NCBI GenBank assembly: GCA_023267375.1
Contig: JAHFNJ010000001.1
Span: forward strand, 21,878-85,877
DNA from: Candidatus Nomurabacteria bacterium
GTDB taxonomy: Bacteria; Patescibacteriota; Minisyncoccia; Phycocordibacterales; UBA9973
Reading direction: 5' to 3'
Length of the DNA: 64,000 nucleotides
How positions within the stretch are numbered: the stretch's first letter is position 1; each line of letters begins with the position of its first letter. Positions 49,487 through 60,566 of the stretch are shown piece by piece. Under the pieces are notes generated by a model. It was not told the DNA's origin. It searched no databases and saw only the letters and a list, made by a program, of their open reading frames with translations. A program made the translations under genes and the position numbers.

Positions 49487-52345
49487 TTATGCAGCGACAA
49501 TGTTCACCAATTTATTTTTTACGTAAATTATTTTTCGAATCGTCTTGCCTGCTATCCATGATTGTATCATAGGATGATTCTTTGCTATTTCTTCTGCTTC
49601 TTTTTCTGATAGTGAAACAGGGACTGTTGCTTCGGCGCGAACTTTGCTATTTACCTGTATGACGAGCGTAAAGGTATCATCAACAATTTTCTTCGGATCA
49701 TACTTTGGCCACTTTGAAAGATGGATAGATTTCTTCTCTCCCATCTCTCGCCAAAGCTCTTCAGCAACGTGCGGGATAAATGGCGCGACTATCTGCAAAA
49801 ATAGCTTGAAATCTTTTACCGAAAGGCTTTCTGCCTTCTCCATTTCATTTACACAAATCATCATCGATGAAATCGCAGTATTGAAACCCATGATTTCAAT
49901 ATCTTCAGTCACCTTTTTAATTGCCTTATGGAGTAATCGTTCTATCTCTTTACTGCTTGTCTTCGCTTTTGCACTCATTACCTTTTCTCCTAGTCGCCAG
50001 ACTTTTTCAATAAAGCGTCGTGAACCGATCATGCTCTCCGTTGACCACACCACTGCTTGATCAAATGGACCAAGAAACATCTCATAGAGACGAAGTGTAT
50101 CAGCGCCGTAGGTTTTGACGATATCGTCAGGATTTACTACATTACCCCGAGATTTTGACATCTTCTCTCCTCCTTCAGCCAAAATAAGTCCATGCGATGT
50201 ACGCTTCTTGTATGGCTCACTCGTCGGCACTAATTTCAAATCATAGAGGAATTTGTGCCAGAAACGAGAATAGAGCAGGTGAAGTGTGGTGTGTTCCATT
50301 CCCCCGTTATACCAATCAACTGGCGTCCAATATTTCAAATTTTTCTTTGACGCAAACTCTTTTTTATTTTTCGGATCGGTGTAGCGAAGATAGTACCAAG
50401 AACTTCCTGCCCAGTTTGGCATCGTATCAGTTTCGCGTTTTGCTTTACCTTTGCATTTTGGACACTTCGTATTTACCCATGAAGTAATAGCGGAAAGTGG
50501 CGATTCCCCAGTATCAGTCGGCTGGTAACTTTTTACTTTTGGCAATTTGAGTGGCAATTCTTTCTCTGGTACTGGCACCCAGCCACACTTTTCACAATTG
50601 ACGAGCGGAATCGGTTCACCCCAATAACGCTGCCGAGAGAACACCCAATCACGAAGTTTGAATTTCGTCACCATTTTTCCGCCGACAAATTCAGTTATAT
50701 TCTTTTTTACTTCTTGAGAAGAAAGACCATTGAACTGGCCGGAGTTAATCAAAACACCACCTTCAGTGTAGGCACCTATTTTCCCAAGATACTTATTCCA
50801 AGAAAGTTTATGATTGCCATGCACCAAAAAATCTTCCATCTTATTTTTTTCTATCCAAAGCGGCTCATGTTTTTTTAACTCCTCTTCATCAACGTTATTC
50901 TGCGCGCCACTTCCAAGTTCGATCACTATCGTTTGTGCTTTCGCATAACGGTTTTCGCCTTTTTGGTGTTGATAAAATTTTGAATGTACTTCAAACTGTA
51001 AATCATATGCTTTCTTAAAATCAGTAAACCCTGTTTCTTCTGAAACCTCACGCTTCATAGCACTTACTGCATCTTCCCCTGTATCAATACCTCCCATAAC
51101 AAGCGACGTCCAATGATCTACTTGTTTCCATTTAAGTGCCAAATATTTATCCTCACTCCAATGTTTAATGATTGCATAGGCAACATCACGCTCAATTACA
51201 GGTTTACCCGCAACAGGCTTATCAGGATGACCTTCTCCAGATTCAAACATCGGTGCAATAACCTGCTTAATCGGCAATTTGTATTTTGTCGCAAACGCAA
51301 AATCACGCTCATCATGTGCGGGTACCGCCATAACCGCGCCCGTACCGTAATTTACCAATGCATAATCAGCCACCCAGACTGAAACCTTTTCACCATTTGC
51401 TGGGTTGATTGCTTCTACACCTTTCAATTCCACGCCAGTCTTTTCTTTGTCGGCCGCTGTTCGGGTCAATTCATCTTTCTTTTTTGCTAGAGCTATATAT
51501 TTCTCAACCTCGTCCCAATTTTTAACTTTCGACTTTAGACTTTCGACTAATGTATGTTCAGGCGCAAGTATCACGTAGGTTGCACCAAAAATAGTATCTG
51601 CACGTGTTGTAAATACTTTGATTCCCAATTCTGAATCTGTAATTTTAAATTCAATTTCACTGCCTTCTGATTTTCCAATCCAATTTCGCTGTTGTGTTTT
51701 GACTTGCGGCAGATAATCTACCGTATCCAAATCTTTATCGAGACGGTCAGCATATTTTGTGATCGCAAGCATCCATTGTTCTTTCTCACGCTTTTCAGTC
51801 AGCGTACCGCAGCGCTCGCAGCAACCATTGATCACTTCTTCGTTCGCTAAACCAATTTTATCTTTTGGACACCAGTTAATGACGGTCTTGGTTTTGTACG
51901 CCAAACCTTTTTTAAAAAATTGCAGAAATATCCACTGCGTCCATTTATAGTACGCAGGGTCAGTGGTATTTACTTCACGAGACCAATCAAACGAAACTGC
52001 CAATGATTTTATCTGTCGACGAAAGTTATCACTGTTTTTCTTGGTGACTTTCTCCGGCGCAATACCTGTCTTGATCGCATAGTTTTCGGTGGGCAGTCCG
52101 AACGCATCCCAACCAATCGGATAAAGCACATTATAGCCTTCCATGCGACGCTTACGAGAAATAATATCCATACCTATATATGGACGCGGGTGACCGACGT
52201 GAAGGCCATCACCTGATGGATATGGGAACTCAATTAAACCGTAGAATTTTTTACCCTTAAGCTTATTTTGAGCGTTATAAATTTTCTTCTTTTCCCATTC
52301 CTTCTGCCATTTGCCCTCGATTTTCTTGTGATCGTAATTCTTCAT
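49487..52345 (-). CDS. leuS: leucyl-tRNA synthetase carrying an inserted Nudix hydrolase domain
   Basis: FPYPSGDGLHVGH (HIGH), CP1 editing domain (TRADTIFGATYVILAPEH...AVPAHDERDFAFA), KMSKS. Between CP1 and the YTEGGVLINSGQFNGL segment there is an extra ~160 aa containing GGIDTGEDAVSAMKREVSEETGF, a canonical Nudix box. Confidence 0.9.
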   Translation of the reverse strand: MKNYDHKKIEGKWQKEWEKKKIYNAQNKLKGKKFYGLIEFPYPSGDGLHVGHPRPYIGMDIISRKRRMEGYNVLYPIGWDAFGLPTENYAIKTGIAPEKVTKKNSDNFRRQIKSLAVSFDWSREVNTTDPAYYKWTQWIFLQFFKKGLAYKTKTVINWCPKDKIGLANEEVINGCCERCGTLTEKREKEQWMLAITKYADRLDKDLDTVDYLPQVKTQQRNWIGKSEGSEIEFKITDSELGIKVFTTRADTIFGATYVILAPEHTLVESLKSKVKNWDEVEKYIALAKKKDELTRTAADKEKTGVELKGVEAINPANGEKVSVWVADYALVNYGTGAVMAVPAHDERDFAFATKYKLPIKQVIAPMFESGEGHPDKPVAGKPVIERDVAYAIIKHWSEDKYLALKWKQVDHWTSLVMGGIDTGEDAVSAMKREVSEETGFTDFKKAYDLQFEVHSKFYQHQKGENRYAKAQTIVIELGSGAQNNVDEEELKKHEPLWIEKNKMEDFLVHGNHKLSWNKYLGKIGAYTEGGVLINSGQFNGLSSQEVKKNITEFVGGKMVTKFKLRDWVFSRQRYWGEPIPLVNCEKCGWVPVPEKELPLKLPKVKSYQPTDTGESPLSAITSWVNTKCPKCKGKAKRETDTMPNWAGSSWYYLRYTDPKNKKEFASKKNLKYWTPVDWYNGGMEHTTLHLLYSRFWHKFLYDLKLVPTSEPYKKRTSHGLILAEGGEKMSKSRGNVVNPDDIVKTYGADTLRLYEMFLGPFDQAVVWSTESMIGSRRFIEKVWRLGEKVMSAKAKTSSKEIERLLHKAIKKVTEDIEIMGFNTAISSMMICVNEMEKAESLSVKDFKLFLQIVAPFIPHVAEELWREMGEKKSIHLSKWPKYDPKKIVDDTFTLVIQVNSKVRAEATVPVSLSEKEAEEIAKNHPMIQSWIAGKTIRKIIYVKNKLVNIVAA

Positions 52346-53055: not shown

Positions 53056-53538
53056 ATGACTCGCGCAGAAAGAAACCGAAAACGTATAGAGACAGCCTCG
53101 ATAAAGCTTACTCGCTGGATCGGTTCAACACCATCTGTGATCGTCCACACGATCTTTTTTGCGATTATGCTCGCCCTTCCGTTTTGGGGCGTTGGTTTTG
53201 ACAGAATACTACTCGTCCTTACCACAGCCGTCTCGCTTGAAGCGATCTATCTTTCCATATTTATCCAAATGACGGTGAACCGACACAGTAAAGAACTTGA
53301 AGAAGTATCAGAAGATATTGAAGAGATTCAGGAAGATGTGGAAGAGATTCAGGAAGATGTGGATGAAATTCAAGAGGATGTCGACGAAATCCAGGAAGAC
53401 GTGAGTGAAATTCAAGAGGATGTCGAAGACATCGAAGAAGAAACTCAATCAGACGATGATAGAACGATGGAGAAAATTGAAACAACCTTGGCCGATCTCA
53501 TGCGCGAAATAAAAGAGCTCAAAAACTCAAAAAAGTAA
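53056..53538 (+). CDS. DUF1003-like membrane protein with an acidic heptad-repeat tail
   Basis: Two TM helices plus IFIQMTVNRHSKE (DUF1003-like), then (E/D)(E/D)IQEDV repeated five or more times, encoded by 21-bp tandem repeats. Confidence 0.5.
   Translation: MTRAERNRKRIETASIKLTRWIGSTPSVIVHTIFFAIMLALPFWGVGFDRILLVLTTAVSLEAIYLSIFIQMTVNRHSKELEEVSEDIEEIQEDVEEIQEDVDEIQEDVDEIQEDVSEIQEDVEDIEEETQSDDDRTMEKIETTLADLMREIKELKNSKK
53299..53440 (+). repeat. 21-bp tandem repeat array inside the 53056..53538 CDS (about 6 units)
   Basis: gaagagattcaggaagatgtg occurs as two perfect units, followed by degenerate units. Confidence 0.7.
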
Positions 53539-56165: not shown

Positions 56166-59100
56166 TTACAACCCCAATGCTTGCAGTATCGCTGCCCAGG
56201 TTACTGGACCAACAACACCATCAACCGGAGCAAGACCTTTTGCAGCTTGGAATGCTTTCACCGCTGCTTCGGTCTGTAATCCGAAGTATGCATTTTCATT
56301 ACCAGGAGAACCGCCACCAGTTGTTGAAACGATGAATCCCAATTTGTTGAGTGATTGCTGAAGGAACATTACATCAGGACCGGTTGATTTGTATTTCAAT
56401 ACTCCAGTGTATGGATGACCGTTTGATGATGCTCCTGCATTACTGTTCCCTGATGGAGGAGTAACGCCAGCACACGACTGACCGGTTGATGGAGAGAAGA
56501 GGAAGCCTGCAGCACAGTCTGTTGGAGGGGTTGCTGGGGTTGCAGGAGGAGTTACTTTTGGACGTGATGATCCTCCACCGCCTCCACCACTAATGCTGGT
56601 GCCAGACGATGACTTATTAAATGTTGCAGTGCAGGTCTTGTCATCATCCATTGTAATTGTAATCGTCGCATTTGTACTTGAAGAACAGCCAGACCAATTC
56701 TTGAACGTAGATTTTGCTGCCGCTACTGCATAGAGTGTTACTTCTGTACCATCATCATAATCAGGTCCTTCTGGGTCAACATGGATAGTGCCTGTGCCAT
56801 TTCCTGAAGTATTGGTAGTTAAAGTAAATTGTTCAGGACCAGTCGAAACAAATGTTGCATGAATAGAATGGTTACCAGTAACATCTGTAAATTCATACGT
56901 TGTAACTGCGCCAACAGAAACATCATCTACAGTTACATCATCAATTGCGTATCCTTCGCTTGGAGCTACTGTAAAGGATTGGTCATCTCCTTCTGCAACG
57001 GACACCACTCCACTTGGAGTGACTGTTCCATTACCACCAGTTGTAGCGGTAATGTGATGCGTTTGAACGAGTGTAGGATAATCACCAACATTTGTTTTCC
57101 ATATGGTGTCAAAATTCCAGCTACCATTATCAAATGGATGATTAGCGGTGACGTCGCCGAAGAAATAGTTTGCACCAAGGGCAACAGGCGCGTTCACTCC
57201 TTCACATTCACCTGCAGTATCGTTTGCAACAGGAGGATCGATCCAGTCAGTAAATATCGAACAATGATCCTGTCCACTTCGATCTATATCGTAATAGTTA
57301 TTTGAGAGAGTTGCGCCATCATCATTTTCACCGAGAAAGCCGGCAGTAAAGATTCCAAATCCGGAAACTTCTTCAACTGCACCAGCAGAGAAACTGTTTG
57401 AGATAGTACCGCCTTCAGTTTCACCCACAAGTCCGCCGACTTCAGATTCAGTTTCTTGAACATCTGTTTCTAAATCTTCATCCCACATAAGCAACCCTGT
57501 AAGATCTCCCGTTACATCACCAGAAGCATATGAGTGGTCAATAATTGTTTCGTCAGCAAACCCTACGAGGCCACCAACCGAACGTGTTCCTGAAACATCA
57601 CCACTCGCATAAGAGTTATCGATTGTAAGAACACCTTCTGAATCTCCAATAAGACCTCCGGTATCCTGACCTCCAGTAACATCACCAGTCGCATATGAAG
57701 TGGTAATAGTTGTATCATCATCTGCTCCACCTATAAGTCCACCGAATCCATAGTAATCATTATCAATTTGAGATGTTATATTACCAGTTGCATGAGAATC
57801 AGTAATATTCACAGTTACTAAATCACTCGTCCACCCAACTAAGCCACCCAAATACTCATAGATACTTGAAACATCATTTGTTGCATAGCTTTGATCAATG
57901 TTTACTGTTGTTGGATTTTCACCCCACCACCAACCTGACTCTACTGAACCGAGTAGTCCACCAGCGTATCCTTCATCAATACTACCAAGTTCATCTGACG
58001 CGCCAATATCTCCCACAGCATTTGAGTTGGTAATGTTTATAACTTGGTGACCTCCACTATTTATCGAATAACCTATAAGCCCACCGATAGAGGAACTTCC
58101 AATTTCAATCGGAACGTCACTATAACTATCAGTTACGGTGAGCGTATTTGTTTCACCTGTATCGCCACCTGTATAAAATTCTCCTATCAATCCTCCAATG
58201 TATTCACCATCTTCTGTTGTACTTGAGATGGTTCCTGTAGCGCTACTTCCATCAATCACTGCTGTTGCTTGATCATTAAGTTCAATTTCACCAATAAGAC
58301 CTCCAGCGTAACCTTCTGGTGCGGTAACCACGTTCCCACTTTCATTAGTCCATGAACTATCAGTTATAGTAAGCTCATCTCCATTTTCAACATTAGCATA
58401 ACCAATTAGTCCGCCAACTTCCTCATTACCTGTAACATCTTCAGTTGAAGTACTATTTTCTATAGTAATGTCAGCATCGTATATTTCACCTAAAAATCCA
58501 CCTATACCATAAGATTCACTTGTATTTGTAATAACATTTGCAGAATTTGTACTATCAGTAATCGTTATTGCTCCACTATTATTATCATCCCCATCATACT
58601 CTCCGATAAATCCACCCACTCCCTCTCCATTACCTGTTGTAACTGCTCCCTGATTTGTTGCATCATCAAAATTAATAGTAAAAGGTATATCCTCTGAGTA
58701 TGCATGTCCGATGAAGCCACCTATATAATAATTCCAAGTAGTACCCTCATTATCTGTGGCAGTTACACTTGCATTATTGTAACTCTCTCCTTCTATACTT
58801 ATAGAACTATTACGAGAATCTACTTGCCCAATAAATCCTCCAAGACTGTATATATCGTTACCACTTGAAGTACTACCAATACTTCCATCAACATAACTAT
58901 TATCTACAGTAATCACGCTGTTATAACGGATTATAGAATAACCTATAAGTCCACCGATATACCCACTATTTGTAGCAGAAATATTTACGTTAGCATCTGA
59001 ATCTGAAATAGTTACATTACTTCCAAAGCGCTGCTCCAATCTTCCAAACATTCCACCTAAATTATTCTGACCATCATCTACTGAAAGCTGTCCTTCGGTG

Positions 59101-60566
59101 CCATAATTTACGGAAGTATTTGAAACCGTGAGTGTTGCTCCGTGGTATGCATCTCCATATCCAACAAGACCACCGACATCATAATTACCGTGCACAGCTC
59201 CATCAACTCCACCAACAATAGTATCTGAAATAGTTAAAGAAGAATCGTAATACATCTCGTATCCTCCTATAAGACCACCGACATCACTATCCCCAGTTAA
59301 ATGAAGATTACTTGTACTGTTTGTTATTGAAAGCAAACTATCACGTGCATCCCAGTATCCAACAAATCCTCCTATATCACTCCACGCACTATCAATTGTT
59401 CCATCGGCACTTGTATCATCTATGTAAACACTACCTGCGGAAGATTCCCAATAATCATCATTGTTAACATAACCAATAATTCCACCAACATCATATATAT
59501 TATCTCCATTGCCAATATCTACAGTGGCATGAGAACCGCCATTAATAACAAGTGAACCACCACGATACTGTTCTACTTCTCCAACAAGTCCACCAATATC
59601 ATATCCTGGAATTATTCCACCTTCATCTATAAGTACATTAGTATCTACGTTTGTAAGCGTGAGAACAGAACCACCAGATTCAATATCTGCATAACCGACA
59701 GCTCCACCCAATTCTCCTTGACCATTTATAGTTGCCTCTCCATCCCCCCAAGAAGTGTCACTAAGAGTAGCTTTTGCCGAGGAATCAAGATATACATAAC
59801 CAATAAGTCCCCCAACATCATTACTACCTGACGCAACATCACCAGTTACCACTACATCATCAACAGTAAGACTCGCATTATTGGACATATTTACATATCC
59901 AATAAGTCCACCTGTTGCCCAACCATCATTCGTGACATTCACCGATACAGATCCTCCTGTTATTGAAACAGCACTACTTGCAGCATCCCCATATACTTCT
60001 CCGACAAGTCCACCGATATAGTAGTTTACTCCATGAACAGTTCCGCTTGCTGACACATTTTCAACCGTTGAATCATATTGAAGGTACCCAGCAAGTGCTC
60101 CGATATTATAAGCTCCACTCATATTAACGTCTGTAAGTGTAAAATCATGAATATATGCACCATTATTTGTATCACTGAAAAGTCCTACACCATCCTCACC
60201 TGGACGATTTATATATAAGCCAGTAATTGTATTACTGTTTCCGTCCAAGGTTCCAGAGAAATTTTCAAGTGGAGAAAAACCATAAAATCCACCTTCTCCA
60301 TTATCATTCCAGGTGGTTGTACCCGAACAATTAATAACTCCTTCGCCACCATTTAATTGATAGTAAACTCCTGGAGCTACATTGTTACCAATTGCTTGCA
60401 ATTCTTCACACGTAGTAATGAGATAAGGATTATCGGCAGTACCATCGGGATCAGCAAACGATGTTTTTGGGTAGACAGCAACCAAGGTAACTAGCACTAT
60501 CGCAAAAATTCCCGTTGGAACAAATGAAAACTTCCTGAATTTTTTAAAAAAGTTTGTGGTAATCAT
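56166..60566 (-). CDS. giant cell-surface protein: signal anchor, ~35 GLUG-type repeats, InlB-B-like repeat, Cys motif, and a C-terminal peptidoglycan-binding domain
   Basis: 1466 aa. Reiterated ..(I/V)GG(L/F)(I/V)G(Y/E).. units of ~25 to 30 aa (GLUG motif). C-terminus ...PSEGYAIDDVTVDDVSVG..YEFTDVTGNHSIHATF, G6SS linker, DCAAGFLFSPSTGQSC, then LxxGxxGxxVxxLQ...DGVVGPVT (PG_binding_1-like). Confidence 0.7.
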   Translation of the reverse strand: MITTNFFKKFRKFSFVPTGIFAIVLVTLVAVYPKTSFADPDGTADNPYLITTCEELQAIGNNVAPGVYYQLNGGEGVINCSGTTTWNDNGEGGFYGFSPLENFSGTLDGNSNTITGLYINRPGEDGVGLFSDTNNGAYIHDFTLTDVNMSGAYNIGALAGYLQYDSTVENVSASGTVHGVNYYIGGLVGEVYGDAASSAVSITGGSVSVNVTNDGWATGGLIGYVNMSNNASLTVDDVVVTGDVASGSNDVGGLIGYVYLDSSAKATLSDTSWGDGEATINGQGELGGAVGYADIESGGSVLTLTNVDTNVLIDEGGIIPGYDIGGLVGEVEQYRGGSLVINGGSHATVDIGNGDNIYDVGGIIGYVNNDDYWESSAGSVYIDDTSADGTIDSAWSDIGGFVGYWDARDSLLSITNSTSNLHLTGDSDVGGLIGGYEMYYDSSLTISDTIVGGVDGAVHGNYDVGGLVGYGDAYHGATLTVSNTSVNYGTEGQLSVDDGQNNLGGMFGRLEQRFGSNVTISDSDANVNISATNSGYIGGLIGYSIIRYNSVITVDNSYVDGSIGSTSSGNDIYSLGGFIGQVDSRNSSISIEGESYNNASVTATDNEGTTWNYYIGGFIGHAYSEDIPFTINFDDATNQGAVTTGNGEGVGGFIGEYDGDDNNSGAITITDSTNSANVITNTSESYGIGGFLGEIYDADITIENSTSTEDVTGNEEVGGLIGYANVENGDELTITDSSWTNESGNVVTAPEGYAGGLIGEIELNDQATAVIDGSSATGTISSTTEDGEYIGGLIGEFYTGGDTGETNTLTVTDSYSDVPIEIGSSSIGGLIGYSINSGGHQVINITNSNAVGDIGASDELGSIDEGYAGGLLGSVESGWWWGENPTTVNIDQSYATNDVSSIYEYLGGLVGWTSDLVTVNITDSHATGNITSQIDNDYYGFGGLIGGADDDTTITTSYATGDVTGGQDTGGLIGDSEGVLTIDNSYASGDVSGTRSVGGLVGFADETIIDHSYASGDVTGDLTGLLMWDEDLETDVQETESEVGGLVGETEGGTISNSFSAGAVEEVSGFGIFTAGFLGENDDGATLSNNYYDIDRSGQDHCSIFTDWIDPPVANDTAGECEGVNAPVALGANYFFGDVTANHPFDNGSWNFDTIWKTNVGDYPTLVQTHHITATTGGNGTVTPSGVVSVAEGDDQSFTVAPSEGYAIDDVTVDDVSVGAVTTYEFTDVTGNHSIHATFVSTGPEQFTLTTNTSGNGTGTIHVDPEGPDYDDGTEVTLYAVAAAKSTFKNWSGCSSSTNATITITMDDDKTCTATFNKSSSGTSISGGGGGGSSRPKVTPPATPATPPTDCAAGFLFSPSTGQSCAGVTPPSGNSNAGASSNGHPYTGVLKYKSTGPDVMFLQQSLNKLGFIVSTTGGGSPGNENAYFGLQTEAAVKAFQAAKGLAPVDGVVGPVTWAAILQALGL

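Follow-up and report, generated by a model that had tools for sequence, protein, structure and literature searches.

The window analysed here is a stretch of 64,000 nucleotides (64 kb) from a contig of a Candidatus Nomurabacteria bacterium (JAHFNJ010000001.1), and its gene of interest is leuS, on the reverse strand, which encodes a leucyl-tRNA synthetase (LeuRS) with what is almost certainly a Nudix hydrolase domain nested inside its CP1 editing domain. The TIGR00396 model (leuS_bact) matches the protein with 995.8 bits against an equivalog cut-off of 548.4, in two stretches with the insert between them, and the Pfam families tRNA-synt_1, tRNA-synt_1_2 and Anticodon_1 all match as well. The HIGH, CP1 and KMSKS motifs and the sequences flanking the insert, all named in an original prediction made from the DNA letters, were all found in the protein. 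PF13603 aligns to residues 220-368 (profile positions 1-145 of 185), and the CP1 motifs TTRADT (the T-rich motif, 246-251), YGTGAVM (333-339) and AHDERD (343-348) are present; T246, T247, R248, D250, T251, G334-G336, H344, D345, R347 and D348 do not vary among 99 homologues. The sequence LPIKQVIAP (residues 357-365) immediately precedes the insert and YTEGGVLINSGQFNGL (residues 526-541) follows it, with G530, L532 and S535 of the post-insert part of CP1 conserved in 119, 112 and 118 of 120 homologues respectively. The window LeuRS is a working-looking enzyme of the bacterial type, with its catalytic and editing motifs intact.

The insert occupies a surface loop towards the C-terminal end of CP1, a domain that in turn interrupts the Rossmann fold. 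In an alignment to solved editing domains, window residues 316-365 correspond to residues 103-152 of the Aquifex CP1 structure (3pz5) and residues 523-554 to 160-191; about 157 window residues stand where the Aquifex domain has 7, as expected from the prediction of a large extra segment at this point. The coordinates predicted for that segment, 50770-51255, are out of register with the reading frame by two bases and were corrected to 50771..51253 on the reverse strand, residues 365-525. At the junctions, P365 is followed by M, L, V or I upstream, and downstream the sequence is A, V or C at 525, Y526, then T, V or I at 527, with no conserved HN. An intein, another self-splicing insert or a mobile element was considered and rejected, since the splice-junction residues (a nucleophilic Cys, Ser or Thr opening the insert, and His-Asn before a Cys, Ser or Thr at its downstream end) are absent and the AlphaFold2 model is that of a decorated CP1 with no HINT fold.

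The inserted segment was predicted to be a complete Nudix domain, and profile, motif and fold all agree with this. Pfam PF00293 (NUDIX) matches the excised segment with 34.1 bits (E 3.2e-8) and the whole protein with 30.2 bits, the gathering cut-off being 21.1. The sequence GGIDTGEDAVSAMKREVSEETGF fits the Nudix box G-x5-E-x7-R-E-U-x-E-E-x-G-U exactly, and is the sole match to this expression in the six-frame translation of the window. The full-length protein, modelled by AlphaFold2 with 99 homologues, has a mean predicted local distance difference test score (pLDDT) of 86.7, with values of 83-96 in the insert region, where a strand-strand-helix-strand arrangement is seen, and of 81-87 in its linkers; the Nudix box lies on helix 426-438. 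The domain alone (residues 366-528, modelled on a 34-sequence alignment) gave a pLDDT of 92.2 and a predicted TM score (pTM) of 0.86. In these models the segment forms an alpha/beta/alpha sandwich with the box on a loop-helix-loop, and all 50 of the matches listed by Foldseek against the PDB have the Nudix fold (best 2azw, E 1e-8; TM 0.70-0.77). That the insert is a Nudix fold lying within LeuRS is close to certain. Among the Foldseek matches listed the identity to solved structures is 9-21%, and therefore the insert is a distinct family within the Nudix superfamily, with the signature R...W...GG(I/V)ExGE...REIxEETGY...(F/Y)(Y/F)HxxKxxNR...E...H...W. A chance motif or a known LeuRS-specific insertion is ruled out by the Pfam match, the fold matches and the CP1 alignment, and an assembly artefact by the uninterrupted reading frame and the recurrence of the architecture in hundreds of independent assemblies.

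Residues of the Nudix box are 83-100% conserved among the 120 homologues (G418, E433 and E437 in all 120, G439 in 118, E436 in 117 and R432 in 100). K462 and N465, outside the box, are also invariant. A level of at least 94% is reached by G419, E436, G439, R466 (113 of 120), E489 (119) and W497 (119), while R386 and H493 (111) are conserved in over 90%. The K-x-x-N-R element formed by K462, N465 and R466 lies in or beside the X-loop, some 17-25 residues past the box, and is preceded by the conserved aromatics F457 and Y458. Across 99 homologues the mean identity to the window copy is 34% for the insert as against 71% for the LeuRS body. A divergent insert with a frozen metal-binding motif is the pattern of an active enzyme, unlike that of a decaying relic; the domain has all the residues for Mg2+/Mn2+-dependent pyrophosphate hydrolysis and is, judged by its sequence, probably active.

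The suggestion that the insert might be found throughout the lineage was borne out: PF00293 was detected in each of the 120 best LeuRS homologues (53-68% identity), which carry names including Paceibacterota, Nomurabacteria, Taylorbacteria, Minisyncoccia and Parcubacteria. Species-representative genomes, scanned with a 7-sequence alignment of the domain as query, yielded at least 158 confirmed relatives. Of 80 of these loci about 73 lie inside LeuRS, and the record titles range over Paceibacterota, Adler-, Kaiser-, Komeili-, Moran-, Magasanik-, Berkel- and Gracilibacteria, together with many metagenome-assembled genomes (MAGs) labelled Saccharibacteria. MAG labels were taken as deposited and may be unreliable (for example Saccharibacteria, Gammaproteobacteria or Woesearchaeota on some loci). 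The family occurs mostly in the LeuRS of Patescibacteria. A comparison of the insert alone with a word-indexed set of 5.8 billion proteins gave no match, which reflects the sensitivity limit of that search, as the whole protein and HMMER gave hundreds. At one locus (L063), leuS fragments are mirrored on both strands of a short contig, which looks like a palindromic assembly artefact.

An exhaustive HMMER search with the insert alone against 1.84 billion representatives returned 319 proteins at E <= 1e-3, and the best 150 of these were mapped on the window LeuRS, whose residue numbers are written here with the prefix q; for fragmentary proteins the assignment to a site is approximate. Of the 295 domains detected, 213 fall inside one unbroken alignment to the window LeuRS that runs across the site of the window protein itself (site A, q365/525). 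Site B, at the entry to CP1 (q208-242), carries the sole Nudix domain of P0147 and P0126 and an additional one in P0013, P0027, P0034, P0049, P0062, P0083, P0100 and P0112, and site C, in the second zinc-binding (ZN-2) region (q627-645), is occupied in P0141, P0207 and P0158. Two Nudix copies were found in 21 of the mapped proteins and three in 2. Copies within one protein are 20-46% identical, while most copies at the same site in different proteins are 56-83% identical and those at site C cluster on their own; therefore the insertions are old and independent, and recent intragenic duplication was rejected as the origin of the multi-copy proteins since sibling copies share so little identity. 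In a MAG labelled Taylorbacteria, a frame of 1735 codons between stops (L014:1205-6409, forward strand) encodes a LeuRS with three Nudix copies, two ahead of CP1 and one at site A.

The family is also present in prolyl-tRNA synthetase (ProRS). In P0220, an archaeal-type ProRS, the Nudix domain separates the anticodon-binding domain from the C-terminal one; five ProRS clusters carry the insert (P0220 and P0274-P0277), and their nearest insert-less relatives, of 480-490 amino acids (aa), are named Nanoarchaeota or Woesearchaeota (DPANN). The Nudix family has been captured independently by LeuRS, at no fewer than three sites, and by ProRS. A further form is a stand-alone protein of 278-290 aa, from MAGs labelled Bacilli or Clostridia, which is colinear with LeuRS residues 312-555 (36% identity, E 1e-38) and keeps the Nudix domain and C-terminal CP1 elements, the T-rich and GTG editing motifs having been lost. 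Three of the genes for this "mini-CP1" form are given in Table 1, further proteins of the kind are P0246, P0239, P0258 and P0222, and no leuS was found within 4 kb of the mini-CP1 genes. Fusions of the Nudix domain with an alpha/beta serine hydrolase were seen in P0248 and P0259. The catalytic residues are kept in the site-A, site-B, site-C, ProRS-embedded, free and other contexts, and K-x-x-N-R is conserved across all of them.

Free-standing members of the family, of 154-190 aa, also exist, and the genomic context of eight of them is summarised in Table 1. Three of the eight lie directly upstream of leuS with gaps of 2-10 nucleotides (nt), and P0137 would be a fourth, in a string of genes that includes TatD, an HD 5'-nucleotidase-like gene and a separate MutT-like Nudix. 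For 3 or 4 of eight free copies to adjoin leuS is far beyond chance. The LeuRS beside P0224 has no insert, residue q371 joining q530 through about 16 residues, and hence the fused and unfused forms are complementary in distribution, at least in this case. The four free copies that lie away from leuS keep a synthetase-independent role possible. As a separate observation, four genomes have a second, distantly related Nudix open reading frame (ORF) of 166-195 codons between stops, which is found 1.1-1.6 kb downstream of leuS and scores 30-36 bits against the hidden Markov model of the family.

Table 1. Positions of leuS and its domains and motifs in the window (residues of the window LeuRS in the upper rows), and of related genes and nested domains elsewhere.
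Feature	Location	Strand	Basis or context
leuS, leucyl-tRNA synthetase hosting the insertion, 952 aa	49487..52345	-	ORF, TIGR00396, Pfam
HIGH motif LHVGH, residues 48-52	52190..52204	-	H49, G51, H52 invariant in 99 homologues
CP1 editing domain, pre-insert part, residues 220-365	51251..51688	-	PF13603
Inserted Nudix module, residues 366-525: N-terminal linker and strand, then alpha/beta/alpha sandwich	50771..51250	-	
Nudix sandwich core, residues 383-519	50789..51199	-	
Nudix box GGIDTGEDAVSAMKREVSEETGF, residues 418-440, predicted metal-binding catalytic helix	51026..51094	-	Exact regular expression
Family-specific K-x-x-N-R (K462, N465, R466)	50948..50962	-	Conservation
Conserved C-terminal Nudix elements E489, H493, W497	50855..50887	-	Conservation
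CP1 editing domain, post-insert part, residues 526-562, starting YTEGGVLINSGQFNGL	50660..50770	-	Aquifex CP1 alignment
KMSKS motif, residues 728-732	50150..50164	-	K728, S730, K731, S732 invariant in 99 homologues
Free copy P0139			Gap of 2 nt to a downstream 951-aa LeuRS, itself with the insert
Free copy P0169			Ends 10 nt before a gene beginning with a LeuRS N-terminus
Free copy P0224			Ends 3 nt before a LeuRS without insert, in three assemblies
Free copy P0137 (L002)			2.4 kb upstream of an insert-less 823-aa LeuRS
Free copy P0155 with the preceding fpg/mutM	L086:3016-4513, L087:110-1607		Away from leuS; starts 4 nt after fpg/mutM (Fapy-DNA glycosylase)
Free copy P0194			Away from leuS; divergent from another Nudix
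Free copy P0200			Away from leuS
Free copy P0146			Away from leuS
Mini-CP1 + Nudix genes	L071:3716-4552, L076:3689-4543, L068:3650-4519	+	
Distantly related Nudix ORFs	L021:6896-7393, L043:6907-7443, L065:4358-4942, L070:7377-7919		
Ser_hydrolase/alpha-beta hydrolase insert	P0013 residues 752-919; P0119 residues 484-656		
HAD phosphatase insert	P0112 residues 828-989		
DUF559/REase-like nuclease insert	P0050 residues 266-367		

Clues to the substrate were sought by comparison with characterised Nudix families. The best sequence-profile match in the PDB is the Ap4A (diadenosine tetraphosphate) hydrolase of lupin (1f3y, E 4e-7), and the NCBIfam models of RppH are the commonest weak match, being found with 32 of 34 family members (best E 4.5e-10); the MutT model matches 8 of the 34 at E <= 0.01. 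The window domain itself scores 22.8 bits with the RppH models (PRK00714), whose equivalog cut-off is 116, and 15.6 bits with the MutT model (TIGR00586), whose cut-off is 97.9. Dcp2, AvrM14, NudC and RppH are among the PDB matches. AvrM14 was solved as a Nudix effector and has decapping activity, and the RppH family was described earlier as an ApnA hydrolase, one acting on diadenosine polyphosphates.

Specificity in the Nudix clan has been related to residues of the X-loop (PMC5389931), and ApnA hydrolases have a conserved X-loop tyrosine downstream of the box (PMC5389931, summarising Dunn et al. 1999). In the family described here, aromatic residues occur at +17 and +18 past the box, namely F457 (F in 94 and Y in 19 homologues) and Y458 (Y in 78 and F in 32), these being placed by sequence and not by structural superposition. 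They are followed by K-x-x-N-R, with K462 and N465 invariant, and the further conserved basic residues R386 and H493 would suit a polyphosphate X group. The SQPWPFPxS motif that follows the box in NADH pyrophosphatases of the NudC type (PMC5389931) is not in the window sequence after the box, TDFKKAYDLQFEVHSKFYQHQKGENRY. The ADP-ribose pyrophosphatase subfamily has a conserved proline downstream of the box (PMC5389931). Here K, E or Q occupies position 456, and the 120 homologues share no conserved proline at 450-463. Dunn and colleagues, in 1999, are said to have placed the proline about 16 residues past the box. Nor does the sequence that precedes the box show the motif of CoA pyrophosphatases.

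The closest known systems each share part of this arrangement. RppH/NudH and the Nudix ApnA hydrolases (RppH of E. coli; the lupin, C. elegans and Aquifex enzymes; human NUDT2) are likewise single-domain alpha/beta/alpha proteins with a canonical box, and have aromatic and basic residues in the X-loop region; the insert is merely 14-20% identical to them, scores far below their cut-offs, has its own K-x-x-N-R / E-x3-H-x3-W signature and is nested in a synthetase and not free-standing. The best fold match, 2azw, a MutT/nudix protein of Enterococcus faecalis, is free-standing, shares 21% identity and gives no functional transfer. Canonical bacterial LeuRS enzymes (T. thermophilus 1h3n/2byt, E. 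coli 4aq7 and Aquifex 3pz5) have the same motifs and the same domain order as the window protein, and their sequences align to the flanks of the insert only. An isoleucyl-tRNA synthetase with an N-acetyltransferase domain (NF040702, ileS_w_GNAT) is also a class I synthetase joined to an unrelated catalytic domain, though the domain differs, and the window protein scores 76 bits with that model, against a cut-off of 1999. In animals, lysyl-tRNA synthetase makes Ap4A and the Nudix enzyme NUDT2 removes it, the two being separate proteins that act in trans. In the LeuRS-Nudix protein, by comparison, both activities would sit on one polypeptide.

Aminoacyl-tRNA synthetases make Ap4A and other dinucleoside polyphosphates (ApnN) when ATP or other nucleoside triphosphates (NTPs) attack the aminoacyl-AMP bound to the enzyme. 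Because of this, and because of the specificity clues, an ApnN hydrolase would be the most economical reading of the domain. The Nudix domain would then be an active pyrophosphohydrolase working beside the synthetase, its likeliest substrates being Ap4A, Ap3A, ApnN or close nucleoside polyphosphates produced by the synthetase, and the tethered hydrolase would destroy these by-products at source in hosts whose genomes are very small and whose nucleotide pools are scavenged. Such a clean-up role is consistent with the weak leaning of the domain towards RppH and ApnA hydrolases, the aromatic and basic residues of the X-loop, the repeated capture by LeuRS and ProRS and the operon linkage to leuS, and it is proposed tentatively that the insert hydrolyses Ap4A, other ApnN or related nucleoside polyphosphates beside the enzyme that produces them. 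Several observations weigh against this proposal. Nudix specificity is notoriously hard to predict; the matches to characterised families, RppH and MutT included, all fall far below curated cut-offs; those to the lupin Ap4A hydrolase span little more than the Nudix box; and the top structural neighbours include the NTP pyrophosphatases NudI, NudB and MutT1 as well as the uncharacterised 2azw. Further, LeuRS is not known to be among the strongest producers of Ap4A, four of the eight free homologues are not near leuS, with the place of P0155 after fpg/mutM hinting at a MutT-like role, and LeuRS in these organisms also hosts unrelated domains (serine hydrolase, HAD and DUF559), so that it may be a permissive carrier.

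In the main rival reading, the domain would be a house-cleaning enzyme for damaged or non-canonical (d)NTPs, similar to MutT, NudI or NudB, without any mechanistic link to aminoacylation; its embedding in LeuRS would then serve only for guaranteed expression, at loops of CP1, the ZN region and the linkers that tolerate insertion. NudI, NudB and MutT1 are among the best fold matches, P0155 begins just past fpg/mutM, the free copy at L002 stands before leuS in a string of TatD, 5'-nucleotidase-like and MutT-like genes, the LeuRS insert is the only Nudix in the window, and LeuRS, which takes up serine-hydrolase, HAD and DUF559 domains as well, at more than one site, behaves as a general insertion host. 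The MutT and NudI models, however, score far below their cut-offs, and the repeated capture (at three LeuRS sites and in ProRS), the retention with a degenerate CP1 and the linkage to leuS when free are hard to obtain from neutral hitch-hiking; house-cleaning is accordingly regarded as a possible but rather unlikely role.

The remaining roles, which concern RNA ends, proofreading or repair, and non-catalytic functions, are less likely than both the ApnN and the house-cleaning readings. An RppH-like pyrophosphohydrolase or decapping enzyme acting on RNA 5' ends (pppRNA, Np4N or NAD caps), carried on LeuRS or acting on LeuRS-bound RNAs, would agree with the prevalence of RppH among the weak matches and with the presence of Dcp2, AvrM14, NudC and RppH in the PDB list, but the low RppH score of the window domain, the absence of an evident RNA-binding extension and its failure to explain why LeuRS and ProRS in particular should be the partners make it improbable. 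The nesting of the domain in CP1 could instead point to extra proofreading or repair, by hydrolysis of non-cognate aminoacyl-adenylates or by freeing the tRNA 3' end, near the CP1 pocket, of a pyrophosphate or ADP-ribose-type block. The mini-CP1 proteins, which retain the Nudix domain and the C-terminal half of CP1 without the editing motifs, suggest that the two form a structural unit, and the pLDDT of the linkers in the full-length model suggests a fixed orientation. Set against this, the site-C (ZN-2) and ProRS copies are not beside CP1, the CP1 motifs of the window protein are intact so that no compensating activity is obviously needed, and we know of no precedent for hydrolysis of acyl-adenylates by a Nudix enzyme; such a role is still more improbable than one at RNA ends. 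Finally, some copies have E424 changed to Q or R432 to A, as might be found in a catalytically silent module serving as nucleotide-binding regulator, ligand sensor or extra surface for binding tRNA or protein. The near invariance of E433, E436, E437 and the other motif residues across very divergent copies, which is typical of active enzymes and unlike Nudix domains of the regulator type, makes this the least probable of the explanations, and a very improbable one.

A bolder and more doubtful proposition is that Patescibacteria, and some archaea with an archaeal-type ProRS whose nearest named relatives are DPANN, have repeatedly built a third hydrolytic site, the Nudix domain, into their synthetases. 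It would act on adenylate-derived species made on the same enzyme, whether ApnN alarmones, non-cognate aminoacyl-adenylates after their release or a tRNA with a blocked 3' end. If true, this third site would add to synthetases a layer of quality control or of alarmone control that was not known before, and LeuRS would be a modular platform which also recruits esterase- and phosphatase-type domains. The coupling of Ap4A production by synthetases to its removal is still debated, and a single polypeptide with clear point mutants provides a system in which selection for by-product clean-up, or for new proofreading or repair at the synthetase, could be tested.

Both parts of the protein belong to known superfamilies, bacterial LeuRS and Nudix hydrolase, and it is the nested architecture that seems never to have been described. 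No description of a Nudix domain in LeuRS or any other aminoacyl-tRNA synthetase was found in the openly searchable full-text literature, including that on the candidate phyla radiation (CPR), Patescibacteria and Parcubacteria, subscription-only papers being outside the scope of the search. The 2017 review of the Nudix clan does not mention tRNA or synthetases (PMC5389931). Databases already record PF00293 on LeuRS homologues, which NCBI often names "class I tRNA ligase family protein"; therefore the data are public but uninterpreted. The arrangement is widespread in Patescibacteria/CPR and arose several times, and enzyme domains nested in the LeuRS of organisms with ultra-small genomes matter both for annotation and for how reduced genomes pack their functions.

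Domains other than Nudix were also observed in LeuRS homologues of 1100-1370 aa (P0013, P0119, P0112, P0080, P0050 and P0008), with insertion points at about 208-242, 273, 537, 587 and 631-634 in window LeuRS numbering. Those assigned to families are listed in Table 1, and inserts of around 200 aa without family assignment also occur. A precomputed Ham1 (PF01725) label on some of the long homologues was not reproduced for P0008 at E <= 0.01. In these lineages, then, LeuRS seems to be a place where domains are inserted quite generally.

A link to anti-phage defence was considered and rejected, as PADLOC yields marginal matches only, with a single candidate model, PDC-S07. Elsewhere in the window, 53056..53538 on the forward strand encodes a predicted membrane protein of 160 aa with a DUF1003-like N-terminus, the C-terminal half of which contains a run of acidic, near-perfect repeats of EEIQEDV(E/D/S), and a 1466-aa ORF on the reverse strand (56166..60566) coincides with the strongest GC skew of the window (-0.359, bin 58001-60000).

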